Assembly: GCA_021442665.1 (NCBI GenBank)
Contig: JABUSQ010000026.1
Coordinates: forward strand, 1 to 53,176
DNA: 53,176 nucleotides
Source: Oscillospiraceae bacterium
Lineage (GTDB): Bacteria > Bacillota > Clostridia > Oscillospirales > Oscillospiraceae
Reading direction: 5' to 3'
Shown piece after piece: positions 9,485-26,597 of the stretch. The notes beneath the pieces are model-generated. The model was not told the DNA's origin, did not search any database, and was given only the letters and a program-made list of their open reading frames with translations. Each line of letters begins with the position of its first letter. Position 1 is the first letter of the stretch. The position numbers were made by a program, and so were the translations under genes.

Positions 9485-10138
9485 TTATTTACCCTCCAGA
9501 TGTTCCCTGAACTGGGAAACGGTTTTGAAGTAATGCTCACAGTTTGACCGCATGAAGCTCTCTATCTCGGGGATGTTGTTTGCCCAGCCTGCGGCTGCAA
9601 AGGGAATACCCGCAGCCATAGCCATATCGTAGCCAGGCTTCAGATCGTCGATGGCGAGAACCTCTCCGGGCTTCAGACCGTAGTGCCGGAGTATTTCAAA
9701 AACGGGATGCGGCGAAGGCTTTCTCTCCGAGGGAGGACACTCCCAGCCGAAGACCATGTCGGGCTCCGGAAGCCCGTTTTCACGGTAATCACGGAGAATG
9801 TTGTCTCCGTAGGAGTGGGAGATGACGCAGAGCTTCACCCCGGCATTTTTCTGTGCCCACAGCAGCTCGCGTATTCCCTCATAGCTCCTGGGAACATGGC
9901 GCTGAACGTAAGCATTCCAGTATTCCTGCTCCTCCAGCATCATTTTGTCATCAAGTCCGATGGAGCGGAAGAGAGTCACAATACCGGGATCGAAGTTAAG
10001 ACGGAAATAATCCTCAAGCGAATAGTTCACATGGGGGAAAAATTGCCGTGTGTATTCCACGAAACAGGGATAATGTACCGTGGCGGTGCTGTTGACGACG
10101 GTGTCATCGTGATCGAGAATGAGACAGGAATATTTCAT
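9485..10138 (-). CDS. HAD-superfamily phosphatase
   Basis: 217 aa. Motif I LILDHDDTVV and motif IV-like AIDDLKPG. GGGGGAG RBS. The stop lies 1 nt from the downstream start. Confidence 0.8.
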   Translation of the reverse strand: MKYSCLILDHDDTVVNSTATVHYPCFVEYTRQFFPHVNYSLEDYFRLNFDPGIVTLFRSIGLDDKMMLEEQEYWNAYVQRHVPRSYEGIRELLWAQKNAGVKLCVISHSYGDNILRDYRENGLPEPDMVFGWECPPSERKPSPHPVFEILRHYGLKPGEVLAIDDLKPGYDMAMAAGIPFAAAGWANNIPEIESFMRSNCEHYFKTVSQFREHLEGK

Positions 10139-10234
10139 GCAGCTCCCCCTTGACTATAATAATACCATTTGATTATATTGTAGAACTGTGAAATTGTCAA
10201 ATACAGATACATCTGCTGAGCAGCAATCAAAAGG

Positions 10235-10262
10235 AAAAAGCTCCCCTGCCGGGGAGCTTTTT
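10235..10262 (-). terminator. Intrinsic terminator of the enoate reductase gene
   Basis: Stem aaaaagctcccc / ggggagcttttt with loop tgcc. There is a U-run on the minus-strand reading. It lies 23 nt after the stop at 10285. Confidence 0.65.
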
Positions 10263-10284
10263 GTATGTAGGTTTCCGTATGGAC

Positions 10285-12348
10285 TCAGATGCCCATGCAG
10301 ACGTCCCATGCGCGCCAGATAGCGGTACGCAGGTTGCCGACAGCAACACAGTCGCCGACACGGTGGATGTTCTTGCCCTTGCCGCCAACGGGCTGGGGAA
10401 CGAAGCCGATGCCGTTTACGATGTTGTCGTACTCCAGCTCGAACACATTCTTGCCATCCTTGGAGGCGACAACAACGGTGTTCTCCTTGATCTCACGGAT
10501 GGTGTGCTCCAGATAGGTGGGAACCTTGTGGAATGCAAGCACGTCACGGAGGAAGGATGCGTTGGAAAGGCAGACGTTCTGTGCGGGAACGAGGTCGCGG
10601 GCATACTCTACGATCATGGGGTGCTTGCCCTGCAGGACCATTTCGTATGCAGCTTCGCAGGCAGACTGACCGCCGCCGAAGAACAGAACCTTGTCGCCCA
10701 CGGGCTTCTTATCCTTCAGGAGGTCGGTGAAGGTGAGGCACTTCTCGAAGCCGGGGATAGCCATCTTTCTGGGAACTGCGCCGGTGGCAACGATGATCTC
10801 GTCAAAGCTGCGGGCGATGACACCCAGATCGTTAATCTCAGTGTTGAAGCGGAATTCGATGCCGGCCTTCTTGACTTCGTTCTCATACCATGCGATGAGC
10901 TTCTTGTCGTTTTCCTTAAAGCTCATTGCAGAAGCGGTGAGGAACAGACCGCCGATGCGATCGTTCTTCTCAAAGACAACGGGATGATGTCCGCGCTGCT
11001 TGAGAACCAGTGCGCACTCGCAGCCGCCGATACCGGCGCCGATGATTGCGACCTTCTTGGGCTTCTTGGCGGGAACGATCTTGTAGCGGTTGTGCTGCAT
11101 AGTGGGAGGAGTAAGAGCGCAGCGGCCAAGGTGGAGGGAGTCCTCAAGACCCTGGATATTTGCGGTGCCCTTGTACTTTGCGAAGTTGAAGCAGCCGTTG
11201 TGGCAGCGGATGCAGGGCTTGATCTCGTCTTCCTTGCCTGCCTGAATCTTGAGAATCCACTGAGGATCGACCAGATTCTGACGTGCGAAGGCAACAGCGT
11301 CCAGACGGCCTGCTGCGATTTCCTCTGCAGCGACCTCGGGAGTCATACGGCCTGCACAGGCAACGGGCTTGTCGGTGAACTGCTTTGCCCACTCGACGTC
11401 CTTCAGGTTGCAGTTATCGGGCATGTACTGAGGGGGATGTGCCCAGTACCAGGAGTCATAGGTACCGTTGTCGCAGTTGAAGAAGTCGTAACCCATGTCG
11501 CCGAGGTACTTGATAGCCTTTGCGGACTCTTCGTAGTCACGGCCCCACTCCTCGAACTCCTCACCGGGGACAGCGCCCTGATACCAGCCCTTGCAGTAGG
11601 ACTTGATGGAGTAACGGAGGGATACGGGGAAGTCTGCGCCGGCCTGCTTCTTAATCTCCTGAACGATTTCAACGGGGAAGCGGAAGCGATTCTCGAAGGA
11701 GCCGCCGTACTGGTCGTCACGATGGTTCCAGTTTTCCATGGTGAACTGGTCAAGCAGATAGCCCTCGTGAACAGCGTGAATCTCAACGCCGTCGATGCCT
11801 GCGTCACGCAGCATCTTGGCGGTCTTGCCGAAGGCGAAGACCATGTCCTGAATCTCCTTGACGGTGAGAGGACGGGTGGGAATCTCCTCGGACCAGCGGT
11901 TGGGAGTTGCGGATGCGGAAGCGCAGCTGTACTGAACGTCAACGATGGGGGAGGCAATCTTGTTGAGAACGGGGCTCTTTGCAAGAGCTACCATCCAGGG
12001 GGTAACTGCCATGGAGCGGCCGAAGCCTGCTGCAAGCTGGATAAAGAGCTTGGAGCCGGTCTTGTGGTACTCTTCCATGAAGGGTTTAAGCTCCTTGAAC
12101 ATCTTCTTGTTCTGATAGAGCCAGCGTCTGCCCATGGTATCACGGACACACTGCATACCGGGGAGAACCAGACCTACGCCGTTCTTTGCTCTATCGAGGA
12201 GGAAGTATGCGGCTTCCTTGTCGAAGTGGCAGGGCTCCAGCCAGCCGAAGAGGGAGGTGCCGCCCATAGAACACTGGACTATGCGGTTTTTGATCTCGCA
12301 CTCGCCGATCTTAAAGGGGGTAAAAAGAGGACTATACTTTTCGTTCAT
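10285..12348 (-). CDS. Three-domain enoate reductase / 2,4-dienoyl-CoA-reductase-type NADH:flavin oxidoreductase (OYE FMN domain + [4Fe-4S] + FAD/NAD(P) domain)
   Basis: 687 aa. OYE-like N-terminus (FTPFKIGECEIKNRIVQCSM...GVEIHAVHEGYLLDQF). Cys cluster CIRCHNGC...C. Two Rossmann motifs (VAIIGAGIGGCE, VLFFGGGQSACE). AAAGGAAG RBS. Confidence 0.85.
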   Translation of the reverse strand: MNEKYSPLFTPFKIGECEIKNRIVQCSMGGTSLFGWLEPCHFDKEAAYFLLDRAKNGVGLVLPGMQCVRDTMGRRWLYQNKKMFKELKPFMEEYHKTGSKLFIQLAAGFGRSMAVTPWMVALAKSPVLNKIASPIVDVQYSCASASATPNRWSEEIPTRPLTVKEIQDMVFAFGKTAKMLRDAGIDGVEIHAVHEGYLLDQFTMENWNHRDDQYGGSFENRFRFPVEIVQEIKKQAGADFPVSLRYSIKSYCKGWYQGAVPGEEFEEWGRDYEESAKAIKYLGDMGYDFFNCDNGTYDSWYWAHPPQYMPDNCNLKDVEWAKQFTDKPVACAGRMTPEVAAEEIAAGRLDAVAFARQNLVDPQWILKIQAGKEDEIKPCIRCHNGCFNFAKYKGTANIQGLEDSLHLGRCALTPPTMQHNRYKIVPAKKPKKVAIIGAGIGGCECALVLKQRGHHPVVFEKNDRIGGLFLTASAMSFKENDKKLIAWYENEVKKAGIEFRFNTEINDLGVIARSFDEIIVATGAVPRKMAIPGFEKCLTFTDLLKDKKPVGDKVLFFGGGQSACEAAYEMVLQGKHPMIVEYARDLVPAQNVCLSNASFLRDVLAFHKVPTYLEHTIREIKENTVVVASKDGKNVFELEYDNIVNGIGFVPQPVGGKGKNIHRVGDCVAVGNLRTAIWRAWDVCMGI

Positions 12349-15414: not shown

Positions 15415-16119
15415 ATGCTGAGAATAGAACATCTTACAAAAAAATACGGTGACAGCAAGGCCGTGGACGACCTCAGTCTGCACATTGCCCCCGGCGAAAT
15501 TTACGGCTTCATCGGCCACAACGGCGCAGGCAAGACCACAACTCTGAAATCCGTAGTCGGCATCCTGAAATTCGACGAGGGCGAGATATACGTAGACGGA
15601 GTATCCGTCAAGACCTCCCCCCTTGAATGCAAGAAAATGCTCGCCTACATCCCCGACAACCCCGACCTCTACGAATTTATGACGGGCATACAGTATCTCA
15701 ACTTTATCGCCGACATCTTCGGTGTGGAGGCTCAGGTGCGCACCGAGCGCATCCGCAGATATGCGGACACCTTTGAGATAACCGAAGACCTTGCCCAGCC
15801 GCTCAGCGCCTACTCACACGGCATGAAGCAGAAGCTTGCCATCATATCCGCCCTGATACATGAGCCGAGGCTCATAATCATGGACGAGCCATTTGTGGGT
15901 CTTGACCCCAAGGCAGCCCACACGCTCAAGGGCATCATGCGTGAGCTGTGCGAAGCGGGCTGCGCCATCTTCTTCTCCACCCATGTGCTGGAGGTCGCCG
16001 AGAAGCTATGTGACAAGGTGGCTATAATCAAGGGCGGAAAGCTTGTGGTGGCAGGCACCATGGAAGAGGTCAAGGGTGACACTTCCCTTGAAGAGGTGTT
16101 CCTTGAACTGGAGGAATGA
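15415..16119 (+). CDS. ABC transporter ATP-binding protein
   Basis: Walker A GHNGAGKTT, signature YSHGMKQKL and Walker B LIIMDEP. Starts 1 nt after the pspC-domain gene stop. Confidence 0.9.
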   Translation: MLRIEHLTKKYGDSKAVDDLSLHIAPGEIYGFIGHNGAGKTTTLKSVVGILKFDEGEIYVDGVSVKTSPLECKKMLAYIPDNPDLYEFMTGIQYLNFIADIFGVEAQVRTERIRRYADTFEITEDLAQPLSAYSHGMKQKLAIISALIHEPRLIIMDEPFVGLDPKAAHTLKGIMRELCEAGCAIFFSTHVLEVAEKLCDKVAIIKGGKLVVAGTMEEVKGDTSLEEVFLELEE

Positions 16120-17717
16120 ACATGCTGAAGGCTCTGTTTAGAAAGCAGTTCATGGAGCTGACCACCTTCATGTTCATGGACAGAAAGACGGGGAAGCTCC
16201 GCAGCAAAGGGAAGATTGTACTCACCATCGTGGGCTACGTCGCACTGATGCTTTATCTTGCGGCAATGATGTTCCTGATGTGCCGTGCCTTTGCCGCTCT
16301 GCTGTATACCGGGCAGGCGTGGCTGTACTACTCACTGACGGGTATGGCAGCCATCATGCTGGGCGTATTCGGCAGTGTATTCAACACCTATTCGGGCATG
16401 TACCACTCCAAGGACAATGAGCTCCTGCTGTCCATGCCCATTCCACCGTCGAAAATACTTGCGGCGAGGCTCTCCGGCGTTGCTGCCATGGCTCTGATGT
16501 TTGAAGCAGTGGTATTCATACCCGCTATCATCGTGCGTTTTGTCTATGCGCCGGTGACTCCGACCGTGGTGATATTCTCTCTGCTCATCATGCTGACGGC
16601 GCTGGTCATCATTCTGGTGATAACCTGCTTCCTAGGCTGGATAATCGCCGTTGTTGCGGCAAAATTCAAAAACCGCAGCTTCCTCACTGTGATTTTTGCG
16701 CTGGTATTTTTTGCTCTGTATTATTACTTCTTCTCTCAGTCATATAATATCATTCAGAACCTCATCACCAGCAGCGATGAAGTGGGCGATGCGCTGAGAA
16801 CATGGGTCTACCCCTTCTACCTCATGGGTATGGCGGGCGAGGGCGATGCGGTCAGCATGCTGCTGTTTATCCTCATTGCCGCGTTTCTGTTTGCGCTGAC
16901 GTGGTTTATCCTGTCCCGGACCTTCGTGTCCATCACCACCAGAAAAGAAACCGTGGCGAAGAAGGTCTACAGGGAAAAGACGGTAAAGGCTGCGTCCGCC
17001 GACAAGGCTCTGCTCCGTAAGGAGCTCAAACGCTTCACCTCCAGCGCAAACTATATGCTCAACACCGCTCTGGGCAGCGCATTCATGGTGGCAGGTGCGG
17101 TGGCCCTCTTGATATTTAAAAATGACCTTGCTCCGCTGGCACTGCTGCTTGAGGAATCCGGCTACGGCGATATGAAGGCACTTATCGTTGCGGCGATTCC
17201 TATGATTGTCGGTGCTATGAACGACATAAGCGCGCCCTCTGTATCTCTGGAGGGGAAAAACATATGGATTGTCCAATCTCTTCCCGTTCCCACGGACAGG
17301 GTGCTGGAGGCAAAGCTCCGGCTGCACAGACTCATAACCCTGCCTCCAGCAATTCTGCTGGCAGCGGCAAGCGTGTACGTCCTCAGACCCTCCGCAGTTG
17401 ATTCGGTCTGCGCCGTCCTTGCGACGGTGGTGTTTGTTTACCTGACCGCAGCATTCGGTCTGGTGATGAATCTCAAGCGCCCCAACCTCACATGGACAAA
17501 CGAGAGTATCCCGGTGAAGACCGGCTTTGCTCCCTTTGTGGCTATTTTCGGATCCTGGGCTTTGGTGGCATTATTCTGCATCGGCGGCTTCCTGCTGAGA
17601 AATAAATTTGCATCGGTCATTTACGTGCTGATATTTGCGATGCTTATGCTTGGAGCGACTGCGCTGCTTACCCGCTGGGTACGGCGCAAGGGCGTGCAGA
17701 TATTCGAGGAGCTGTGA
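16116..17717 (+). CDS. Large polytopic membrane protein, putative ABC exporter permease
   Basis: 533 aa with many TM segments. ATGA overlap with the ATPase gene. No specific motif recognised. Confidence 0.65.
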   Translation: MNMLKALFRKQFMELTTFMFMDRKTGKLRSKGKIVLTIVGYVALMLYLAAMMFLMCRAFAALLYTGQAWLYYSLTGMAAIMLGVFGSVFNTYSGMYHSKDNELLLSMPIPPSKILAARLSGVAAMALMFEAVVFIPAIIVRFVYAPVTPTVVIFSLLIMLTALVIILVITCFLGWIIAVVAAKFKNRSFLTVIFALVFFALYYYFFSQSYNIIQNLITSSDEVGDALRTWVYPFYLMGMAGEGDAVSMLLFILIAAFLFALTWFILSRTFVSITTRKETVAKKVYREKTVKAASADKALLRKELKRFTSSANYMLNTALGSAFMVAGAVALLIFKNDLAPLALLLEESGYGDMKALIVAAIPMIVGAMNDISAPSVSLEGKNIWIVQSLPVPTDRVLEAKLRLHRLITLPPAILLAAASVYVLRPSAVDSVCAVLATVVFVYLTAAFGLVMNLKRPNLTWTNESIPVKTGFAPFVAIFGSWALVALFCIGGFLLRNKFASVIYVLIFAMLMLGATALLTRWVRRKGVQIFEEL

Positions 17718-17718
17718 T

Positions 17719-17931
17719 ATGGAGATAGAATGCGGAAGATACCGCCATTTCAAGGGCAGGGAGTACGAGGTGCTGGGTATGGCGCATCACTCCGAGACCG
17801 AGGAGGAAATGGTCATCTACCGGGCGCTCTACGGAGAACGGGGTATATGGGTCCGCCCTGCGGACATGTGGAACGACACCGTCACCCGGGACGGCGTCAG
17901 CTTTAGGCGTTTTACGAAAATCGAAGACTGA
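17719..17931 (+). CDS. DUF1653-like small protein
   Basis: I placed the start at the internal ATG 17719, directly after the permease stop. RYRHFKGREYEVLGMAHHSETEEEMVIYRALYGE...WVRP matches the DUF1653 pattern. Confidence 0.65.
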   Translation: MEIECGRYRHFKGREYEVLGMAHHSETEEEMVIYRALYGERGIWVRPADMWNDTVTRDGVSFRRFTKIED

Positions 17932-17938
17932 AAAACCG

Positions 17939-17976
17939 ACTCCGCAGCGCACGTTCGTTTGTGCTGCGGAGTTTTG
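17939..17976 (+). terminator. Intrinsic terminator
   Basis: Stem ctccgcagc.cac / gtgctgcggag followed by tttt. It lies 8 nt after the DUF1653 stop. Confidence 0.55.
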
Positions 17977-18155
17977 CAGAATTCATTCCCGCCCTCCCGG
18001 TTACACCGCAGCAGACCCGGAATATACCCGAACGGTTCAGTGCTGCGGGAGGAGCTCGTCATCAATGCTTCTGCTCCAAAATTCAAACAAAGGTTAATGG
18101 TGATTAACCAGACGTGAAAAAGAGTGCCTTTGCAGGATGCTCTAAAGTTCAGCAA

Positions 18156-18201
18156 AACAGGAAAACGGTGCAGCCCGTTCGGGCTGCACCGTTTTCCTGT
18201 T
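18156..18201. terminator. Bidirectional intrinsic terminator (perfect 21-bp palindrome)
   Basis: aacaggaaaacggtgcagccc-gttc-gggctgcaccgttttcctgtt. A GC-rich core is followed by a U-rich tract in both orientations. It ends 4 nt from the CoA-transferase stop. Confidence 0.7.
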
Positions 18202-18204
18202 ATA

Positions 18205-19401
18205 TCAGATTATGTTACTCGCATAGAGCTCGTTTAGAGCCGCCTCATCGAGACCGAGCAGTTCCCCGTAAACGGCGGCGTTGTCTTGACCGAGAGACGG
18301 CGCGGGGCGGTTAATGACGGCCGTGGTGTCCAACAGCTTCACAGGGTTTCCGTTAACCTTCATTTCCCCTATAATCGGATGAACAATTGGTACGAACATT
18401 TCTCGCGCGCCTGCGATGTGTTCGTCTTCAGTAACCCGGGACAGCCCGTTTATCGGGGCGGCGGGCACGCCTGCGGCGTCAATTATTGCAACGCATTCAT
18501 CTACAGTATGCAGACTTGTCCACTTTTCCACCTCTGCCTTCAGGGCGACATGATTTTCACAGCGTGCGGGATTCGAACTGAAACGATCGTCATCAAGCAG
18601 ATCCTCACGCATCAGAGCCTTGGTGCAAAGAAGCTTAAACAGCTTGTCGTTACCGCAGCCTATGACGAAGCGGCCGTCGGATGCGGTGAACGCGTCGTAA
18701 GGGTATGCTGAGGCATAGCGGTTGCCGATGAGCTCCGGATTTTTGCCGGAGGCAAAGTAGCGCTGAGTGCCTGTCTCAAGGCTTGCCACAACAGAGTCAA
18801 CAAGGGATACATCGACACGCTGGCCCCGTCCTGTTAGGGTTCTTGCGTGGAGTGCGGTTAACACGCCGATGGTGAGATTCATTCCGCCGAGAACGTCGCC
18901 CATAGCATTGCCTACACGCAGAGGATTGCCGCCGGCTTCGCCGGTGATGCTCATGAGTCCTCCGGTTGCCTGCGCGATGATATCGTACCCGGGGCGCTGG
19001 CTGTAAGGTCCGTAGCAGCCGAAGCCCGAAACGGCCGCGTAAATAATCCGGTCATTGACATTCTTGAGTACATCATATCCCAAGCCGAGCTTATCCATAA
19101 CACCCGGCCGGTAGTTTTCAACAATTACATCCGCTTTTTTGACCATATCGAGGAAAATTTTTTTACCCTCTTCTGTCTTGAGATTAAGCGTTATGCCTTT
19201 CTTCCCGCGGTTCACGTTTGCATAGTACATGCTCTCGCCGTTTTTGAAGGGCCCCATGCCTCTCGTGTCATCGCCCTTACCGGGTACTTCTATCTTTATT
19301 ACGTTTGCGCCGTAATCGGCTAGCATCATGGTGCAGTAGGGCCCTGCCAGAACTCTGGTGAGGTCGAGAACGGTAATATCCTGTAAAGCTGAAATATTCA
19401 T
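18205..19401 (-). CDS. Family III CoA-transferase (CaiB/BaiF/Frc type)
   Basis: 398 aa. ITVLDLTRVLAGPYCTMMLADYGANVIKIE is the family III N-terminal signature. GYDIIAQATGGLMSITG follows it. GGAG RBS. Confidence 0.85.
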   Translation of the reverse strand: MNISALQDITVLDLTRVLAGPYCTMMLADYGANVIKIEVPGKGDDTRGMGPFKNGESMYYANVNRGKKGITLNLKTEEGKKIFLDMVKKADVIVENYRPGVMDKLGLGYDVLKNVNDRIIYAAVSGFGCYGPYSQRPGYDIIAQATGGLMSITGEAGGNPLRVGNAMGDVLGGMNLTIGVLTALHARTLTGRGQRVDVSLVDSVVASLETGTQRYFASGKNPELIGNRYASAYPYDAFTASDGRFVIGCGNDKLFKLLCTKALMREDLLDDDRFSSNPARCENHVALKAEVEKWTSLHTVDECVAIIDAAGVPAAPINGLSRVTEDEHIAGAREMFVPIVHPIIGEMKVNGNPVKLLDTTAVINRPAPSLGQDNAAVYGELLGLDEAALNELYASNII

Positions 19402-19418
19402 AGTTTAATCTCCGCTTA

Positions 19419-20324
19419 TCAGCAGCAGGGCTGCTTTGATTCATTTATACAAATTTGATGTCCGCTGTAAATACCGTCAACAAAGCTTTTCTGATATTTC
19501 GAAAGAGCAAGGAGCTTATCAAAATCGATCCCTGTATCATAGCCCATTTTTTCCAGCATATAAACGAGATCCTCCGTTGCAGTATTGCCCGATGCTCCGG
19601 GAGCGAAGGGGCAGCCGCCGAGACCACCGAGCGTGGACTGGACTGTGCTTATACCGCACTCAATGGCGGCCAGAGTGTTTACGAGTCCCATGCCTCTGGT
19701 GTCGTGAATATGTATCTGAAGCTCTGCCTCGGGGAGGGCTTCTCTGAGTGCAGTTACTATGCGGCGCACGAGTCCGGGATCTGCCACGCCGATGGTATCT
19801 GCAGGGTACATTTTACGAACGCCAGCGTCCCAGAGCCGTTCGGCAAAGGCAACAACCTTTGCAACGCTCTGCTCGCCCTCGAAGGGACATCCGAGCGCTG
19901 TTGCCATACCAACGGTAATGTCAACGTTCGGGAAGTCTCTTATTATTTGCTCAAGGTCGGCAAAGGATTGGTCGTGACTGCGATTTATATTCCTCATATT
20001 GTGCTTTTCGCTGACAGAGATGACATAAGACATATGCCTCACTCCGGCGGCGTAAGCATTCTCCACGCCCCGTCTGTTAGGAGTAAGCGCGTATAGCTCC
20101 AGCTGAGGGTATTTTTCAGTACAGATTCTCGAAATCTCTGCCGCATCGGCCATCTGGGGAATTGCCTTGGGGCTGACGAAGGAGGTTATCTCCATCTTGG
20201 TTACACCGGTGCTGATGAGACCGTCGATAATCTCGAGCTTCTTTTCTGTGGGCAGGAACTGTTTAAGGTTCTGAAAGCCGTCACGGGGTCCTACCTCTAA
20301 AATGCTGATTTTTTTCTTATTCAT
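19419..20324 (-). CDS. HMG-CoA-lyase-like (HMGL family) acyl-CoA lyase
   Basis: 301 aa. ILEVGPRDGFQN, TSFVSPKAIPQMAD and the metal motif HIHDTRGMG. ATGA overlap with the upstream gene. Confidence 0.85.
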   Translation of the reverse strand: MNKKKISILEVGPRDGFQNLKQFLPTEKKLEIIDGLISTGVTKMEITSFVSPKAIPQMADAAEISRICTEKYPQLELYALTPNRRGVENAYAAGVRHMSYVISVSEKHNMRNINRSHDQSFADLEQIIRDFPNVDITVGMATALGCPFEGEQSVAKVVAFAERLWDAGVRKMYPADTIGVADPGLVRRIVTALREALPEAELQIHIHDTRGMGLVNTLAAIECGISTVQSTLGGLGGCPFAPGASGNTATEDLVYMLEKMGYDTGIDFDKLLALSKYQKSFVDGIYSGHQICINESKQPCC

Positions 20325-20839
20325 AATTCTTCCTGACTAATTGCCGAGGCCTGAGCCTTTCCGGCGATATAGTTCATTAGGCCTCCTTTTTCGATAATTT
20401 CCATTATAAAAGGAGGAAACACTTCAACAGCATACTCCTCATTGAGAGTTTGATTAAATATTACACCTTGCTCAAGGTCTATTTTCAGCTCGTCACCTGT
20501 GCGTATCCTGCGGCTTGCCTCTTCTGACTGAAGAATAGGCAGACCTATATTGATAGAGTTCCTGTAAAAAATACGCGCAAAGCTTTCTGCAACGACAGCT
20601 GAGATCCCTGAGGCCTTTATTACTGCCGGCGCGTGTTCCCTTGAAGAACCGCATCCGAAATTTGAACCGGCAACAATAACATCGCATTTTTTTACTCTTC
20701 CGGCAAATTCCGGATCAATATCCGACATGCAGTAAGGGACAAGCTCCTCCATGACTGAGTTTGTTAAGTATCTTGCCGGGATAATAACATCGGTGTCTAT
20801 GTTATCTCCGTATTTGTGTGCTGTTCCCTGTAAAATCAT
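20321..20839 (-). CDS. Aconitase-family dehydratase small subunit (LeuD-like)
   Basis: I placed the start at the internal ATG 20839, overlapping the large-subunit stop (ATGA). DNIDTDVIIPARYL and GSNFGCGSSREHA motifs. Confidence 0.8.
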   Translation of the reverse strand: MILQGTAHKYGDNIDTDVIIPARYLTNSVMEELVPYCMSDIDPEFAGRVKKCDVIVAGSNFGCGSSREHAPAVIKASGISAVVAESFARIFYRNSINIGLPILQSEEASRRIRTGDELKIDLEQGVIFNQTLNEEYAVEVFPPFIMEIIEKGGLMNYIAGKAQASAISQEEL

Positions 20840-22098
20840 AGAAACCTCCTCGGATCGGTAAGCCTGCCGCATATTGCGGATGCGGCAGCTGTAGCCGGGC
20901 TTGCAAGTATAATCTTTGAAGTAACGGGCCCCATGCGTCCGATAAAATTCCTGTTGGTCGTTGAGACCGCCCACTCATCATCGGACAGAACGCCCATGTG
21001 ACCGCCGCAGCACGGACCGCAGGTGGGGGTGGAAACGGCACAGCCTGAATTTACAAATACTTCAACAAGACCTTCTCTGATTGCATCGGAATAGATTTTC
21101 TGCGTTGCCGGGATAATGAGACACCTCACGTTTTCGGAGACTTTGCGTCCCCTAAGTATTTCGGCTGCAGCACGCAGGTCATCAATACGTCCGTTTGTGC
21201 AGGAGCCAATAACTACCTGTTGGATAATAATATCCTCTGTATCGCACACTTTTTTTACGTTGGAAGGAAGATGAGGCATTGCAGCCACCGGGACAAGCTC
21301 ATCCAGATTGATTTCTACGGAGTACGCGTATTCTGCGTCCTCATCAGCCTGTAAAGTCGAAAAAGTTTTGCCCACGGTTTCCTTCAGATATGTGTTTGTA
21401 ATATCGTCTACGGGAAAGATGCCGTTTTTTGCACCGGCTTCAATTGCCATATTGCAGACGGTGAATCTGTCGTCCATGCCCAGCGAGGAAATGCCTTCCC
21501 CGGTAAATTCTATTGATTTGTACCGGGCACCGTCAACTCCTATTATTCCTATAAGCTCAAGAATCACATCTTTACCGCTGACGCCCGGCTGCAAGCTTCC
21601 CGACAGAACCACCTTAACTGCCTCAGGAATCTGAAACCAAAGCTTTCCCGCAGCCATAGCAGCAGCAGCGTCCGTTGAGCCGACGCCCGTTGAGAATGCA
21701 CCAAGCGCACCGTAGGTGCAGGTGTGAGAGTCCGCTCCTATAACAAGCATTCCGGGACGGATATAGCCTTTTTCAGGAAGAAGAGCGTGCTCTATGCCCA
21801 TTCTGCCCACATCGTAAAAGTTTTTGATGCCATGCTCAACGGCAAAACTCCTTGCTCTGCTGCACAGCTGAGCTGTTTTTATATCTTTACAGGGCGTGTA
21901 ATGATCCAGTACAATCACTACCCTGTCGCTGTCATGGAGTGTTTTTATGTTAGATTTGCCAAGAACATCGGCAATAACCGAGGTCATAATATCATTGCTC
22001 AGCACGAGATCCACTTCAAGCTCCGCAAGCTGCCCGGCATGAACTTCTGACTTCCCGGCTTTTTCTGCGAGTATTTTCTGTGTAAGAGTCATTCCCAT
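20836..22098 (-). CDS. Aconitase-family dehydratase large subunit (LeuC/homoaconitase-like)
   Basis: 420 aa. MTLTQKIL start, DHYTP, IGADSHT and Fe-S ligand contexts GSCTNGR and TCGPCCGGHMG. GGAG RBS. Confidence 0.85.
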   Translation of the reverse strand: MGMTLTQKILAEKAGKSEVHAGQLAELEVDLVLSNDIMTSVIADVLGKSNIKTLHDSDRVVIVLDHYTPCKDIKTAQLCSRARSFAVEHGIKNFYDVGRMGIEHALLPEKGYIRPGMLVIGADSHTCTYGALGAFSTGVGSTDAAAAMAAGKLWFQIPEAVKVVLSGSLQPGVSGKDVILELIGIIGVDGARYKSIEFTGEGISSLGMDDRFTVCNMAIEAGAKNGIFPVDDITNTYLKETVGKTFSTLQADEDAEYAYSVEINLDELVPVAAMPHLPSNVKKVCDTEDIIIQQVVIGSCTNGRIDDLRAAAEILRGRKVSENVRCLIIPATQKIYSDAIREGLVEVFVNSGCAVSTPTCGPCCGGHMGVLSDDEWAVSTTNRNFIGRMGPVTSKIILASPATAAASAICGRLTDPRRFL

Positions 22099-22112
22099 AA
22101 TTTATCTCCTAT

Positions 22113-22148
22113 GCAGATGGAAGCTGCGCATCGACAGCTTCCATCTGC
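22113..22148 (-). other. Intra-operon perfect 14-bp stem-loop without a sense-strand U-tract
   Basis: gcagatggaagctg-cgcatcga-cagcttccatctgc. It sits between the transporter stop (22163) and the LeuC-like start (22098). On the coding (minus) strand it is followed by ATAGGAGAT (the RBS), not by U residues. Confidence 0.5.
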
Positions 22149-22162
22149 TTTTCGGTAGTTAA

Positions 22163-23404
22163 TTAGTAGAAGAGTCCGTAGATTCCCAAAGCGGAGGCCG
22201 CGGTGGCAAGTACGGTGAAGACGATTGCTGCGATAAGCAGGACATTGAACATGCGGTTGGGGTTTACGCTGCCTTCGGGCGTGCAGCCGATGCACATGGC
22301 GCCTATGCTGCTGAGAGGGCTGATAACAACGCCGTGAGTTCCCACAACGATGCCGACGCACATGGCGTAGAGATCAAGAGAAGAATTGCCTGCGGCAAGC
22401 TCGCCTGCAAGGGGGAACATGGTGGGCATTACAACGCCGGTGGAGCTTGAAACTGCGCCCATAAGGCCGCTGAGAACCGTCATGACAGGCTGAGCATTCT
22501 TTTCGTTGAGAATGTTGGACATTGCGTCCTGCAGAAGCTGGAAGCCGCCTGCTGCTACAACTACATTTATGAAGACGCCCATGCCGCAGATGAGGAACAG
22601 GGTGTTCCAGGGAATAGAAAGGATAACCTTCTTCTGATCCGCCGCATTGAAGATAAGAAGCAGTGCCGCAAATACCACGCACACAAGACCTACATCATAC
22701 TTGAAGGTCACAAGAATAATGATTACCACTGCTATGACCGCGAGAGTAAGCTTCTGCATTTTGTTAAAAGGAGCGGGTTTCTCGAGGAAGGCCACGGTAT
22801 TTTCCGACTTGCCCAGCTTCCAGCCCTTGAACACGATCCAGATGAGTACGGAGAACAGTATCATGCTTACGGCGTAGGCTGCCCACATGGGAGTATAATT
22901 TATTGCTCCCTGCTCTGCGGAAAGAGCCTTTGCAACAATGCCGTTTACCGCAAGAGGAGAAAGAGAACCCGCCATAATAAGGCACATCACGATGAGAGCG
23001 GTCATAAGAACGTCAAGTCCGCTTGCTATGGCAACGCTCAGAGCGATGGGCATTACGATGAGAAGCACGAAGCAGGAGCCGCCGGCAGCGGAAAGGACAC
23101 CGCCAACAGCACCGAAAACAAAGGGCAGTCCGCGAACTTTTCCGCGGCAGTAGTACATTACGTTTTTGGTAATGGCTTCGGTAGTTCCGTTAACATTAGC
23201 AACGCCGAACAGCAGGGTTGATGCAATGATGACAAAGAACACATATGTCGGCCAGCCGGCAACGTATATTTCCTTTGCGCTCATTCCCACAAAGAAGAAG
23301 CCGAAAACGGACGCAACAGCAAGACCGATGATGCCGATGTTTTTCTTGGTGATGATTCCCAGAACGATAACTGCAACAAAGAGAAGCAATGATATAACAG
23401 CCAT
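22163..23404 (-). CDS. Polytopic anion permease, ion-transporter-superfamily-like (CitMHS/DASS/ArsB-like)
   Basis: 413 aa, about 10-12 TM segments. Two-lobed layout with a hydrophilic central linker (KLGKSENTVAFLEKPAPFNKMQK). GGAGG RBS. The family assignment is by overall look only. Confidence 0.5.
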   Translation of the reverse strand: MAVISLLLFVAVIVLGIITKKNIGIIGLAVASVFGFFFVGMSAKEIYVAGWPTYVFFVIIASTLLFGVANVNGTTEAITKNVMYYCRGKVRGLPFVFGAVGGVLSAAGGSCFVLLIVMPIALSVAIASGLDVLMTALIVMCLIMAGSLSPLAVNGIVAKALSAEQGAINYTPMWAAYAVSMILFSVLIWIVFKGWKLGKSENTVAFLEKPAPFNKMQKLTLAVIAVVIIILVTFKYDVGLVCVVFAALLLIFNAADQKKVILSIPWNTLFLICGMGVFINVVVAAGGFQLLQDAMSNILNEKNAQPVMTVLSGLMGAVSSSTGVVMPTMFPLAGELAAGNSSLDLYAMCVGIVVGTHGVVISPLSSIGAMCIGCTPEGSVNPNRMFNVLLIAAIVFTVLATAASALGIYGLFY

Positions 23405-23440
23405 TTTATAATCCTCCTAATTTCACTTAATACTATAGAC

Positions 23441-25321
23441 TCAGACGGTCATGTTTGCGGCGCACTCCGCACCGGACAGGATAGCTTTGAATGCGGTTGA
23501 AACTTCCCTGGCATCGCCGATAGTAAATACCTCAACGTCAGGAATTGCCTCTTTGAGCTTTGCTTCAAGGTCGTTGACCTTTACGCGGCCGAAAGCCATA
23601 ATTGCGGAGTCAAAGCCGCCCAGCTCATAAGCATAATCTCCTGCGGAAACCGTGACCTCGGGGAGCTTTACAGATAAAAGCTTTGTTCCCACGAGAGTCC
23701 TTACTCCCGCTTTCTGCATACGATTAAAGAAGAAGCCTCTTCTCAGCGGGTGTATCTCAGTGGCAATTTTGGGACCCATTTCAATTATGGTACATTTTTT
23801 TCCTAAGGTGCCAAGATATTCTGCTGTTTCACAGCCCACAAGTCCTCCGCCGAAGACGGCAACATTTTCTCCAACGAGCTGAGGATTCTCAAGGACCTCA
23901 TCCGCGGTGAACACGTTTTTGCCGTCCAGACCCTGAATTGCCGTGGGTACAAGAGGAGCGCTTCCGGTGGCGACAACAACTTTCTTTGCACCTTCTGCAA
24001 GAACAGTCTCCGCAGTTAGCTCCGTATTGAACCTCACCTCCACGTTCAGTTCTCTAAGCTCAGCAATTCTTGCGGAAACGAGGCAATCAAAATCCTCCTT
24101 GCAGGGAGGAATTTTTGCAAAGTTTACCGTGCCGCCGGCGCGGCCGGTCTTTTCAAATACCACAGGCTTGAACCCTCTCCTTGCCAATGCTGCGGCAGCC
24201 TCCATTCCGGCTACGCCCGCTCCGGCAATAAGAACCTTTTCGCCTTTTTTGTTCTCCGGCAGCGGAGTATACTCGAGATAGTCTCCGCGCCCGGTCAGGG
24301 GCTGCTGCATACAGAATATTCTGAGTTTATCATCGCCCTTGCAGCCCTGATAGCAACCGATGCACTGACGTACGGAGAGTCCGGTACCGTACTTGTTAAC
24401 CGCGTTGGGATCGGCAAGAAGAGCTCTGCCCATTGCCACGAAGTCTGCGTCTCCGGATTCAAGGATTTCATTTGCAAGCTCCATCGTTGTAATGCGGTTA
24501 ATAGCAATTACGGGGATGCTGACAGCGTTCTTTATTGCCTTAATGTCGCTGCGGTTAAAGGCTTTGGGTAAATCCATAGGGCCGGATACATATTCCTCGA
24601 GCAGAGATGTACCTGCCGATGCGTTAATCGCTGAAGCTCCGGCCTCCTCAATCAGAGCTGCGACCCTGACGCTGTCCTCGATCGTAATGCCGCCTTCCAT
24701 GTACTCACTGGTGCTCATCTTGAATATGATGGGATAATCGGGACCGACTGCCTCACGCATGGCCTTAACCATATCCACACCCATTTTAGCACGGCCCTTA
24801 TAATCTCCGCCATACTCATCGGTTCTGTGATTGTAGAAGGGGGAGAGGAACTGATGCAGTTCATGACCGTGAGCGCCGTGAAGCTCAACGCCGTCAACGC
24901 CGAACTCCTTTGCTCTTGCAGCGGCAAGTGCATACTGCTCTACGAAGAAGTTTATCTCTTCGACGGGCATAAGGTCGGGTTCCTTTTTGCTTTTGTCCAT
25001 TTCGGTGTGATGCTTGAAGGGGTGGAGCTGGACAAAAAGCAGAGCTCCGTGCTTATGGCAAAGCTCTGCTGCTCTTTCCCAATCCGCGCGGTAGTATTCG
25101 CCGCTGAGAGAAAGACGAGCCATGCTGGGAGGACCGTAGGGGCTGCCGGGGATTGTAACAACAGCAGCGCCGCCTTCGGCTCTGGCCTCAATGTAACGCT
25201 CAAGCTCTCTTGTCATTTTACCTTTTGGGGAAGCGTGATAGTGGCACATTGAGGGGAAAATAATGCGGTTCTTCAGCGTGACGTTTCCGATGCTTGCGGG
25301 CGTCAATACAATGTCTGTCAT
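23441..25321 (-). CDS. Three-domain enoate reductase / NADH:flavin oxidoreductase (OYE FMN + [4Fe-4S] + FAD/NAD(P))
   Basis: I placed the start at ATG 25321 (MTDIVLTPASIGNVTLKNRIIFPSM). The listed 25342 start is a TTG. GVELHGAHGHELHQFL, Cys cluster CIGCYQGC...C, and Rossmann motifs VLIAGAGVAGME and VAVFGGGLVGCE. Confidence 0.85.
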   Translation of the reverse strand: MTDIVLTPASIGNVTLKNRIIFPSMCHYHASPKGKMTRELERYIEARAEGGAAVVTIPGSPYGPPSMARLSLSGEYYRADWERAAELCHKHGALLFVQLHPFKHHTEMDKSKKEPDLMPVEEINFFVEQYALAAARAKEFGVDGVELHGAHGHELHQFLSPFYNHRTDEYGGDYKGRAKMGVDMVKAMREAVGPDYPIIFKMSTSEYMEGGITIEDSVRVAALIEEAGASAINASAGTSLLEEYVSGPMDLPKAFNRSDIKAIKNAVSIPVIAINRITTMELANEILESGDADFVAMGRALLADPNAVNKYGTGLSVRQCIGCYQGCKGDDKLRIFCMQQPLTGRGDYLEYTPLPENKKGEKVLIAGAGVAGMEAAAALARRGFKPVVFEKTGRAGGTVNFAKIPPCKEDFDCLVSARIAELRELNVEVRFNTELTAETVLAEGAKKVVVATGSAPLVPTAIQGLDGKNVFTADEVLENPQLVGENVAVFGGGLVGCETAEYLGTLGKKCTIIEMGPKIATEIHPLRRGFFFNRMQKAGVRTLVGTKLLSVKLPEVTVSAGDYAYELGGFDSAIMAFGRVKVNDLEAKLKEAIPDVEVFTIGDAREVSTAFKAILSGAECAANMTV

Positions 25322-25468
25322 GGTCAGTATTCCTTTCGACAACTTAATTTTGCTTTAACTTAACTTATATAAGCTTAATATAAAGCAACGTTTGTAAATT
25401 GTCAACATTCATTTCCAAAATTACGGTTTTTCGGCTAAATTCATATTTTTACTAACCTCACTTTGTGC

Positions 25469-25487
25469 ATTGTGACACAATTGTCAA
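25469..25487. promoter_or_regulatory. Candidate operator: 13-bp dyad ATTGTG-A-CACAAT overlapping an AATTGTCAA repeat
   Basis: Perfect 6-1-6 palindrome at 25469-25481. AATTGTCAA at 25479-25487 is repeated at 25397-25405. It lies in the divergent region between the LacI gene and the catabolic operon. Confidence 0.35.
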
Positions 25488-25580
25488 TGGATGTTTTTAA
25501 ATTCGCGGCATAGTAGACTTGATTATTAGCTTAAATAATGATATAGTTAAGCTGAATTTAGCGTTAAGGATAGGTGTTCT

Positions 25581-26597
25581 ATGGCAACAATACAAGATAT
25601 TGCTGAAAAATGCGATGTTTCGTCTGCGACGGTTTCTTATGTTCTGAACGGGCGCAGCGAAGAAATGCGTATTTCAAAAGCTAAGCAGGCTCAGATATTG
25701 GATACAGCGGCACTGCTGGGATATAAATCAAAAAGAAAAGCAAAGATTGAGTCCGATTCAAAACGCATTCCTTCTATTGCTATTTTTTGGCGCAGTGAGA
25801 ACTACGATATGGTCGTTCCTTCAGTTGTAAAGGGTATCAACAGAGTTCTTGCTACAGAGGCGTCGAAGGTAAATGTGGTCATCAGGCCTTATGAGGTTGG
25901 TCACATATTTGACTCTGACATCTATCTTTACAGCAACCAGTTCGATGCGGCGGTTCTTACAGGTCTCAACCAGGCAGACCTTGATTATATACAAAGAAAC
26001 AGACCGTCAACTCCCACAGTTCTGGTAAACAGAAGCCTCAGTGGTTTTTCTGATGTTTCAATAGACAGCCGGGAAGTTGGACGTTTGGCTGCTGTGCATG
26101 CATTGGGAGTAAGTGACGACGTTGCATTGGTAATGAATCCGTCTTCCCTGTCGAGTATGAAGAGTCAGGGGAACGCTTTCATTCAAACTTGCAGGGATAA
26201 CGGGATTGATATATCAGAAAACATATACTATTGTGATAACAAAATCGGAAGTGCTTATGCTCTTGCACAGGACTTAATAAAGCGGGATGCAATACACAAG
26301 GTGTTTTACTGCAGCTACGATATGGTGGCGTTGGGGATGATAAATGCATTCATGGCAGCCGGACTGGATGTTGGGAAAGAGGTCCACGTTCTTGCAGCAA
26401 GTAACGGCCCGAGCGATCTGTTTTTATACTCCAATCCGTCAATAACCGTTATCAATCAGAAGATGGCTGAAATTACAGAGAGAAGCCTCCGCATGGCTCT
26501 CGATATTGTTACGAATAAGATTTCCGATGAACGTCATCAGCTTGTTTATCCCGTTATAAGCTACGGGAAGTCAAGCCCTGCGAACTATCATATGTAA
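25581..26597 (+). CDS. LacI/GalR-family transcriptional regulator
   Basis: 338 aa. N-terminal HTH ATIQDIAEKCDVSSATVSYVLNG followed by a periplasmic-binding-protein-like effector domain. It is divergent from the catabolic operon. Confidence 0.85.
   Translation: MATIQDIAEKCDVSSATVSYVLNGRSEEMRISKAKQAQILDTAALLGYKSKRKAKIESDSKRIPSIAIFWRSENYDMVVPSVVKGINRVLATEASKVNVVIRPYEVGHIFDSDIYLYSNQFDAAVLTGLNQADLDYIQRNRPSTPTVLVNRSLSGFSDVSIDSREVGRLAAVHALGVSDDVALVMNPSSLSSMKSQGNAFIQTCRDNGIDISENIYYCDNKIGSAYALAQDLIKRDAIHKVFYCSYDMVALGMINAFMAAGLDVGKEVHVLAASNGPSDLFLYSNPSITVINQKMAEITERSLRMALDIVTNKISDERHQLVYPVISYGKSSPANYHM

Follow-up and report, generated by a model that had tools for sequence, protein, structure and literature searches.

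We describe a six-gene operon with a divergent LacI-family regulator, located at positions 18205-26597 of the window, i.e., the whole 53,176-nt stretch of DNA analyzed here (contig JABUSQ010000026.1 of an Oscillospiraceae bacterium, assembly GCA_021442665.1). Judging from its gene content and from related loci, the operon is predicted to serve the inducible catabolism of a 2-alkyl-maleate/2-alkyl-malate dicarboxylate, most likely citraconate and/or (R)-citramalate, a reading to which we give about an even chance. We hold with considerably more confidence the general scheme, which would consist of uptake, hydration by a LeuCD-type enzyme, coenzyme A (CoA) transfer, cleavage by a lyase of the 3-hydroxy-3-methylglutaryl-CoA lyase (HMGL) type, and a reductive branch catalyzed by an enoate reductase (ER). 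This scheme had been proposed in an earlier annotation of the same DNA (the original prediction), and the comparative genomics described below favors it. Read as a whole, the operon would encode a branched fermentation, or dismutation.

In the proposed pathway, a MatC/CitMHS permease would bring the acid into the cell, where the LeuCD-like Fe-S hydro-lyase would interconvert citraconate and (R)-citramalate. A family III CoA-transferase (CoAT) would form (R)-citramalyl-CoA at the C4 carboxylate, probably with acetyl-CoA or succinyl-CoA as donor, and the HMGL-type lyase would split this thioester into pyruvate and acetyl-CoA. On the other branch, the NAD(P)H-dependent ER would reduce citraconate (possibly mesaconate or itaconate) to 2-methylsuccinate, re-oxidizing the reducing equivalents from pyruvate oxidation and serving as an electron sink. 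The LacI repressor would act on GCTTAA/TTAAGC sites over the promoter, from which an intermediate of the pathway would release it. The substrates of aconitase-family enzymes are 2-hydroxy acids with the hydroxyl and a carboxylate on one carbon, and HMGL-type lyases perform the retro-Claisen cleavage of a 3-hydroxy-acyl-CoA; together with the known range of LeuCD, the citraconate/(R)-citramalate pair satisfies both chemistries. In addition, LeuCD-type enzymes yield the R isomer of citramalate, and the spatial arrangement of (S)-HMG-CoA (HMG, 3-hydroxy-3-methylglutarate) corresponds to that of (R)-citramalyl-CoA. The substrates listed in the original prediction (citraconate, mesaconate, itaconate, citramalate, 3-methylglutaconate and HMG) fared differently: citraconate and (R)-citramalate are favored, whereas HMG and 3-methylglutaconate are disfavored, as a 2-hydroxy acid is what the aconitase family requires. 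For mechanistic reasons we also discarded the idea that LeuCD hydrates 3-methylglutaconate or itaconate. To our knowledge, the only characterized R-citramalyl-CoA lyase is the HMGL-type enzyme of Chloroflexus (EC 4.1.3.46), whose partner is a family III CoA-transferase (EC 2.8.3.20). Both EC numbers are listed in PMC8307300. A route engineered to take citramalate via LeuCD to citraconate, and on through an enoate reductase to 2-methylsuccinate, works, as cited in PMC12290011 (Wang 2018), and 2-methylsuccinate and itaconate were found in nearly all healthy human fecal samples (bioRxiv 10.1101/2022.12.26.521950).

The six genes are co-directional on the minus strand and run from 25321 to 18205, with the LacI gene on the plus strand. 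In the direction of transcription, they encode a three-domain ER of 626 aa (23441-25321; PF00724, Oxidored_FMN, and PF07992, Pyr_redox_2), a MatC_N/CitMHS-type anion permease of 413 aa (22163-23404; PF07158, MatC_N, and PF03600, CitMHS), a LeuC-like large subunit of 420 aa (20836-22098; Aconitase domain), the LeuD-like small subunit of this predicted Fe-S hydro-lyase (172 aa; 20321-20839; Aconitase_C domain), an HMGL-type acyl-CoA lyase of 301 aa (19419-20324; PF00682) and a family III (CaiB/BaiF) CoAT of 398 aa (18205-19401; PF02515, E 1.5e-126). The divergent regulator has 338 aa (25581-26597; PF00356, LacI, and PF13377, Peripla_BP_3). ATGA overlaps join the lyase to LeuD and LeuD to LeuC, while gaps of 17 nt, 36 nt and 64 nt lie at the CoAT/lyase, permease/ER and LeuC/permease junctions, respectively. 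The last of these carries a hairpin with a 14-bp perfect stem (22113-22148, unstranded) that lies between the permease stop and the LeuC ribosome-binding site, and that may be a processing or stability element or merely an assembly break. For LeuD, the list of open reading frames (ORFs) placed the start at a GTG at 20974; this is superseded by an ATG at 20839, preceded by a GAGGAGG ribosome-binding site and overlapping the stop codon of LeuC (ATGA). The operon is closed on the minus strand by an intrinsic terminator at 18156-18201, consisting of a 21-bp perfect stem, a GAAC loop and a T-rich tail; it was read from the sequence and in part also picked up by the signal scan. The original prediction was thus borne out as to the ORFs and their coordinates, the overlaps and gaps of at most 64 nt, the strong terminator and the divergent LacI regulator, and the identities that it gave to the gene products agreed with the domain library results.

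The set of seven genes is found again in three further metagenomic lineages, L087/L088, L089/L092/L093 and L098/L099 (L-numbers label the loci that were compared with the window). Every close relative of the ER whose contig reaches past the ER gene carries the window's set, with identities to the window of 73-75% for ER, 69-75% for the permease, 62-68% for LeuC, 60-68% for LeuD, 57-69% for the lyase, 62-74% for CoAT and 45-54% for LacI. In L087/L088 and L089/L092/L093, LacI is divergent from the order ER-permease-LeuC-lyase-CoAT-LeuD, so that LeuD stands at the operon end behind CoAT, whereas in the window it follows LeuC. L098/L099 show the same order up to the contig end, which precedes the position of LeuD. 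The content was kept while the order changed, which argues for selection on gene content and not for an inherited order, and recurrence in three other lineages indicates that this is not a chance neighborhood. Synteny of the kind that the original prediction had proposed to look for was therefore found, at 45-75% identity. L098 and L099, which come from two samples, share an in-frame TGA in ER where the others have Gly74 (GGA; L098:1685-4848), and the N-terminus of their permease is out of frame; these defects reflect either a decaying copy or shared assembly errors.

Few close relatives of the ER were found among 5.8 billion proteins. The lyase has thousands of homologs. It matched PF00682 (E 1.5e-48) and reached 298.1 bits with the HMG-CoA lyase subfamily model PRK05692 (cutoff, 246). 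We built a maximum-likelihood tree in which human HMGCL was the sole characterized sequence, and found that a CoAT-linked clade was split with 98/97 support from the canonical HMG-CoA lyases, a group that consists of human HMGCL and of actinobacterial and alphaproteobacterial enzymes without a CoAT neighbor. The window lyase lies inside a clade of 25 sequences; 22 are CoAT-linked, and of the remaining three, two come from very short contigs. The counterparts of human R41, D42, H233, H235, C266 (GGCP) and N275 were invariant in both clades. Since the catalytic residues are the same in both groups, the sequence of the lyase by itself leaves the substrate unfixed; an attempt to call the substrate from clade-specific active-site residues was dropped, as Y268F and a C-terminal Cys offer too little. 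The CoAT matched PF02515 over its full length (profile positions 1-366 of 366), fell below every NCBIfam equivalog cutoff, and was 72-82% identical to CoATs adjoining related lyases. Among solved structures, it is closest to YfdE (acetyl-CoA:oxalate) and to human succinate-hydroxymethylglutarate CoA-transferase (SUGCT). We predict that the CoAT activates a hydroxy-dicarboxylate with acetyl-CoA or succinyl-CoA as donor, and that the lyase is an (R)-citramalyl-CoA lyase releasing pyruvate and acetyl-CoA.

A tblastn survey of 86 loci showed that the lyase adjoins a CoAT at least 45% identical to the window's in many anaerobes and in some enterobacteria. The pair is a widespread, mobile two-gene module whose contexts vary. 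In Clostridioides difficile and several metagenome-assembled genomes (MAGs) of Oscillospiraceae/Clostridiales, a divergent LacI gene is accompanied by lyase-permease-CoAT only; in C. difficile (L001:8731-13566) these three proteins are 64, 33 and 72% identical to those of the window, respectively, and neither LeuCD nor ER is present. In a co-culture/antibiotic transcriptome table (PMC10174544), the lyase of this cluster, CDR20291_0728, is listed as strongly down-regulated; literature on HMG and CoA-transferase gene clusters and on the C. difficile locus tags yielded nothing functional. The closest lyase (73%; its CoAT, 81%) occurs in L004:5373-15398, and also in L005 and L006. The L004 cluster further encodes a sigma-54 activator, a DUF997+SSF symporter, an alpha/beta hydrolase, an unannotated 225-aa protein, a ferredoxin, and a three-subunit 2-oxoacid:ferredoxin oxidoreductase; to have the latter next to the closest lyase is in keeping with pyruvate or another 2-oxoacid as product. 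A gene of the isocitrate lyase (ICL)/phosphoenolpyruvate (PEP)-mutase type lies divergently upstream of this cluster.

The module is also joined to LeuCD-type genes elsewhere. The order LeuC-LeuD-CoAT-lyase was found in Anaerospora and in MAGs of Family XIII, Desulfovibrionaceae and Synergistaceae. When the two low-GC loci (Anaerospora and Family XIII) were annotated, a PrpF-family gene was found directly upstream of LeuCD-CoAT-lyase, and in the Anaerospora and Desulfovibrionaceae loci a gene for a PrpR-type activator adjoins the module. By analogy, PrpF in this sister module would fit an isomerase that converts itaconate (or another isomer) to citraconate; Mii of Eubacterium barkeri isomerizes itaconate to citraconate slowly. 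The LeuCD proteins of the PrpF-linked clusters form a separate, distant lineage, with a LeuD loop reading PPQYMEL against ARYL in the others. With two unrelated LeuCD lineages beside the lyase and CoAT, LeuCD-type hydratases have been joined to the pair at least twice. NCBIfam gave no specific name for the PrpF-linked LeuCD, CoAT and lyase proteins or for those of L091 (described below), and the CoAT and lyase DNA of Escherichia albertii had no match among complete E. coli genomes. A Marinobacter locus (L084:8788-18880) encodes two HMGL-type lyases, two CoATs and a distant LeuC/LeuD-like pair (~34% identity); its lyase at 10001-10849 groups with the canonical HMG-CoA lyases in the tree and so looks like part of a different pathway.

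The LeuC-like subunit of the window scored 625.2 bits with TIGR02083, above the cutoff of 610.65, while the LeuD-like subunit scored 231 bits with TIGR02084, under the cutoff of 245.85. An alignment showed that LeuC keeps the 4Fe-4S ligands C300, C360 and C363. It is 65-67% identical to the housekeeping LeuC of Oscillospiraceae, one of which (P0335) sits in a leuC-leuD-leuB arrangement; in the window, leuA and leuB were found neither in the operon nor beside LeuCD. In a LeuC tree, the housekeeping branches were very short, and the window, L087 and L089 proteins, on branches of 0.33-0.63, stood at the unresolved base of the housekeeping group. At 20 positions all three catabolic copies depart from a residue that is at least 95% conserved in housekeeping LeuC, and at nine of these the replacement is the same in all three; the shared replacements include L192R, beside an invariant Tyr, and L364C, beside ligand C363. 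These features fit a duplicated leuCD that was recruited and retuned, and we rejected, from synteny and branch lengths, the idea that a housekeeping leuCD had landed here by chance. We predict that the LeuC-like subunit acts as citraconate hydratase/(R)-2-methylmalate dehydratase. The specificity loop of the window LeuD reads ARYLTNS, and the loops YLTN, YLNT and YLAT contain no Arg at the position that, from work on methanogens, we take to mark homoaconitase small subunits and to bind an extra carboxylate. The lack of this Arg argues for an alkyl substituent and against a tricarboxylate.

The ER combines an old yellow enzyme (OYE)-type FMN barrel, a 4Fe-4S motif CX2CX3CX9C (CIGCYQGCKGDDKLRIFC) and a FAD/NAD(P) domain. 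Its best solved relative is the E. coli 2,4-dienoyl-CoA reductase FadH (1ps9; 203 bits), and its score with the BaiCD equivalog was 423 against a cutoff of 825. In place of the canonical HGAHGYL motif the window ER reads HGAHGHE (about residues 160-170; window 24810-24840); its clade reads H(G/A)HE, with a shortened FMN domain and with HPFK or HPAK at the HAGR-type motif, and more distant relatives keep GYL. Judged by these motifs, the window ER and its clade are a distinct active-site subfamily. Scans of metagenome contigs with the permease and with the ER as queries gave no match. Gene context was also read for five more distant ER relatives (43-53% identity), and in two of them genes for a carboxylate transporter and a LeuCD-like pair accompany the ER, together with a C-C lyase from another family. 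In L091 (6822-14508) the order is TctCBA-ER-ICL/PEP-mutase type lyase-LeuC-LeuD, with an isocitrate/isopropylmalate-dehydrogenase-like gene, and in L095 (7001-15603) ER-TctCBA adjoins LeuC-LeuD-HpcH/HpaI type lyase, with a 2-hydroxyacid dehydrogenase gene; the ER is 43-44% identical to the window's in both. The contexts in L090, L096 and L097 were uninformative. Together with the window type, L091 and L095 make three designs in which an ER is joined to a transporter, a LeuCD-type hydratase and a lyase. L091 and L095 have the look of parallel, orphan pathways acting on unsaturated di- or tricarboxylates; they are candidates for the reduction of aconitate to tricarballylate. The window ER is predicted to reduce citraconate, or an isomer, to 2-methylsuccinate. 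Oxidation of an alkyl-succinate with NAD is very unfavorable, and for this reason the ER most likely works in the reductive direction.

The permease is predicted to import a dicarboxylate and possibly also to exchange methylsuccinate; its counterpart in the three-gene cluster of C. difficile is only ~33% identical. The LacI protein fell below all equivalog cutoffs and was 45% identical to the regulator beside that cluster and ~32% identical to those in three MAGs. The operon promoter, TTGACA-17-TATATT at 25405-25377 on the minus strand, lies upstream of the ER start and is the top-scoring promoter-like site of the region, with an 11/12 match. A candidate LacI operator, TTAAGCTTATATAAGTTAAGTTAA (25350-25378, unstranded), overlaps its -10 box and the transcript start, and a candidate auto-regulatory operator, GCTTAA-N12-TTAAGC (25529-25552, unstranded), lies just upstream of the LacI start. 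In the 53-kb window, GCTTAA-N(0-14)-TTAAGC matched only at this second site, against 0.04 matches expected. When seven control regions were compared (those of the window, L087, L089, C. difficile L001 and three MAGs), a TTGACA -35 box was common to all, and GCTTAA/TTAAGC half-sites occurred over or just after the -10 box, with one to seven per region and at least three in six of the seven; by a rough estimate, ~0.1 per region would be expected by chance. L087, L089 and C. difficile L001 repeat the -35/-10 arrangement of the window promoter ahead of these sites. A dedicated LacI subfamily thus appears to control both the three-gene and the six-gene versions and probably senses an intermediate common to both. 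The original prediction had called a LacI-type regulator atypical for an organic-acid operon. Such regulation of a non-sugar acid operon is indeed unusual, yet here it is consistent.

Contigs from a gut metatranscriptome (two runs of one sample) that were >99% identical to the window covered 18217-24677. Three junctions were spanned by single contigs, namely CoAT-lyase-LeuD (18371-20464), LeuD-LeuC (20426-21604) and permease-ER (22949-24657). Depth over the operon was ~5-10, and coverage was near zero over LacI. The contigs of the operon and those of the neighboring plus-strand unit both end at the terminator. These data show that the operon is expressed in vivo, with partial co-transcription. 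The neighboring unit (16000-18160) encodes an ABC ATPase/permease and a small downstream gene, and was covered by one contig at a depth of ~13.7, which indicates that the organism was transcriptionally active in that gut sample.

Several observations weigh against citraconate/(R)-citramalate catabolism as set out above. The lyase makes a good HMG-CoA lyase in terms of sequence, passing the PRK05692 cutoff with its full set of catalytic residues, and the CoAT-linked clade is separated from canonical lyases by nothing but Y268F and the C-terminal Cys. The original prediction had pointed to the lyase and CoAT of Chloroflexus as a precedent; in our tree, the lyase is set against human HMGCL as the one characterized sequence. 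The CoAT is as near to human succinate-HMG CoA-transferase as to other dicarboxylate transferases, and the esterases in related clusters would suit an ester-bound acid such as HMG. The Tyr to His change in the ER active site means that its chemistry may differ from that of textbook enoate reductases, and the placing of the ER on a side branch, instead of in a linear step, is drawn from chemical reasoning alone. As for transcription, metatranscriptome contigs can contain DNA, and no contig crosses 22051-22153 at the permease-LeuC hairpin, where the mean depth dips, so that the co-transcription implied by the original prediction is shown in part, at the junctions spanned by single contigs.

There is a modest chance that the same scheme works on another 2-substituted maleate or malate, such as maleate/D-malate, 2,3-dimethylmaleate, ethyl- or isopropyl-malate, or aconitate/citrate via citryl-CoA. 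LeuCD-type enzymes are generally known to hydrate several 2-substituted maleates (e.g., maleate hydratase and E. barkeri DmdAB), the window LeuC lies above the cutoff of the isopropylmalate isomerase equivalog, the permease also matches the CitMHS citrate-transporter family, and relatives of the ER adjoin tricarboxylate (Tct) transporters and ICL-type lyases. However, the Arg-free LeuD loop speaks against tricarboxylates, the 2-oxoacid:ferredoxin oxidoreductase by the closest lyase fits pyruvate-type products and not glyoxylate, the PrpF-linked versions fit isomerization of itaconate to citraconate, and neither isopropylmalate nor dimethylmaleate is known to be an abundant substrate in the gut. 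Utilization of HMG, by import, SUGCT-like CoA transfer and cleavage to acetoacetate and acetyl-CoA, with LeuCD and ER accessory or unrelated, seems unlikely to us. It would account for the lyase score and catalytic residues, for the 275 bits between the CoAT and the human succinate-hydroxymethylglutarate CoA-transferase, and for the esterase genes, which could free HMG from plant HMG esters. Against it, neither HMG nor 3-methylglutaconate has the hydroxyl and carboxylate on one carbon that aconitase-family hydro-lyases need, although two independent LeuCD lineages are joined to the lyase and CoAT; the lyase clade lies apart from canonical HMG-CoA lyases; and the clusters seen contain no acetoacetate-handling gene, whereas a 2-oxoacid oxidoreductase is present. 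That LeuCD is simply the organism's own leucine/isoleucine biosynthetic isomerase, in the operon by accident, we regard as very unlikely. LeuC does exceed the LEU2 equivalog cutoff and is 65-67% identical to Oscillospiraceae housekeeping LeuC, but LeuD is under its cutoff, leuA and leuB are not nearby (the housekeeping homolog being in leuC-leuD-leuB), and the branch is long, with its 20 altered positions in all three catabolic copies. Moreover, LeuC and LeuD stay with ER, permease, lyase and CoAT in two rearranged lineages, and in the third LeuC does so on contigs that stop ahead of the LeuD position.

The other alternatives concern the ER and the direction of flux. It is improbable that the ER catalyzes a linear first step, either the reduction of a dienoic or more unsaturated precursor to the LeuCD substrate or, in the position occupied by PrpF in other clusters, a redox-neutral isomerization of itaconate/mesaconate to citraconate. 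The ER is the first gene of the operon, and its clade is unusual in that a His of the active site replaces the Tyr proton donor; an isomerase, PrpF, precedes LeuCD-CoAT-lyase in Anaerospora and Family XIII; and ER, LeuCD and a lyase occur together in three different designs. Yet the complete FAD/NAD(P) domain and the 4Fe-4S motif are kept, pointing to a net transfer of electrons, the gut is not known to contain a natural diene dicarboxylate that would be a candidate, and no precedent is known for a dicarboxylate isomerase in the ER family. Operation in the synthetic direction, from pyruvate and acetyl-CoA through citramalyl-CoA, citramalate and citraconate to exported 2-methylsuccinate, is more improbable still. 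All steps are reversible in principle, one line would account for every gene, and the same chain has been engineered in bacteria, as cited in PMC12290011 (Wang 2018). Such a route, however, would make a poor electron sink, with one NADH per five carbons and the loss of pyruvate and acetyl-CoA; the LacI-type repressor and permease, under tight regulation, follow the pattern of substrate-induced catabolism; and the three-gene versions without LeuCD and ER make sense only catabolically.

If catabolism of citraconate and/or (R)-citramalate is correct, the operon would represent a second degradation route for C5 branched dicarboxylates beside the itaconyl-CoA pathway, and a second microbial source of fecal 2-methylsuccinate. 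Itaconate, citraconate, mesaconate and 2-methylsuccinate are immunometabolites or abundant fecal compounds, and their turnover by microbes of the anaerobic gut has hardly been charted. A function would also be provided for the widespread module annotated as 'HMG-CoA lyase + CaiB/BaiF transferase', including the LacI-controlled cluster of C. difficile. The enoate reductases would make up a distinct subfamily, with possible use in biocatalysis, that is specific for dicarboxylates/tricarboxylates and works with LeuCD-type hydratases and interchangeable C-C lyases; its Tct-linked relatives would be candidates for the enzyme, as yet unidentified, that reduces aconitate to tricarballylate in gut and rumen bacteria.

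Each of the enzyme families in the operon is known, as are LeuCD-type citraconase or maleate hydratase activity and methylsuccinate-forming enoate reductases, and the lyase and CoAT chemistry has a precedent in Chloroflexus. Consistent with the original prediction, we found no description of the combination in the literature. What appears new is the predicted joining of free-acid hydration, late CoA activation and R-specific cleavage to a dedicated Fe-S ER and a LacI-type repressor in gut Clostridia. In Chloroflexus aurantiacus, succinyl-CoA:(R)-citramalate CoA-transferase (EC 2.8.3.20) and (R)-citramalyl-CoA lyase (EC 4.1.3.46) are likewise a family III CoA-transferase and an HMGL-type lyase, with the products predicted here (pyruvate and acetyl-CoA) and an R stereochemistry that matches the LeuCD product; the likeness drawn here is one of enzyme family. 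That pair serves the carbon metabolism of a phototroph, however, and has no LacI-controlled uptake operon and no LeuCD, ER or permease partner. Canonical HMG-CoA lyases (human HMGCL, Bacillus subtilis YngG and Pseudomonas LiuE) have the same fold and catalytic residues as the window lyase, but the latter belongs to the separate CoAT-linked clade, has no leucine-catabolic (liu) context, and is linked to a LeuCD that is chemically incompatible with HMG.

Among pathways for related acids, the end steps of nicotinate fermentation in E. barkeri (Mii, DmdAB and Dml) likewise use a LeuCD-like hydratase on a substituted maleate followed by C-C cleavage, and their PrpF/Mii-type isomerase has a counterpart in the PrpF-linked sister module; there, by contrast, the free acid is cleaved by an ICL-family lyase, and none of CoA-transferase, HMGL lyase and ER takes part. 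The itaconate degradation pathway (Ict-Ich-Ccl) and the mesaconase-linked use of mesaconate in Burkholderia also convert C5 branched dicarboxylates to pyruvate and acetyl-CoA via citramalyl-CoA. In Ict-Ich-Ccl, activation comes first, hydration is of the MaoC type at the CoA level, and the S isomer is cleaved by a CitE-type lyase; none of the seven window proteins contained domains of a MaoC-type itaconyl-CoA hydratase or a CitE/HpcH-type (S)-citramalyl-CoA lyase, and the family III CoA-transferase of some species is the sole enzyme family in common with the window operon. IrdA of Eggerthella lenta (Little et al., bioRxiv 10.1101/2022.12.26.521950) likewise turns a C5 unsaturated dicarboxylate of the gut into 2-methylsuccinate as an electron sink, but it is a respiratory flavin reductase of the fumarate-reductase type, not of the OYE/FadH type, and has no link to a cleavage pathway. 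The engineered CimA-LeuCD-enoate reductase route (Wang et al. 2018), as cited in PMC12290011, follows the same chain from citramalate through citraconate to 2-methylsuccinate, using small OYE-type reductases and a citramalate synthase in a synthetic setting, whereas the window set is natural, employs a three-domain Fe-S flavoenzyme and a CoAT and lyase pair, and is predicted to be catabolic. Only tentatively do we propose the operon as the natural counterpart of that route, by which gut Clostridia would dismutate citraconate/(R)-citramalate to acetate, CO2 and 2-methylsuccinate with an ER that founds a His-for-Tyr subfamily.

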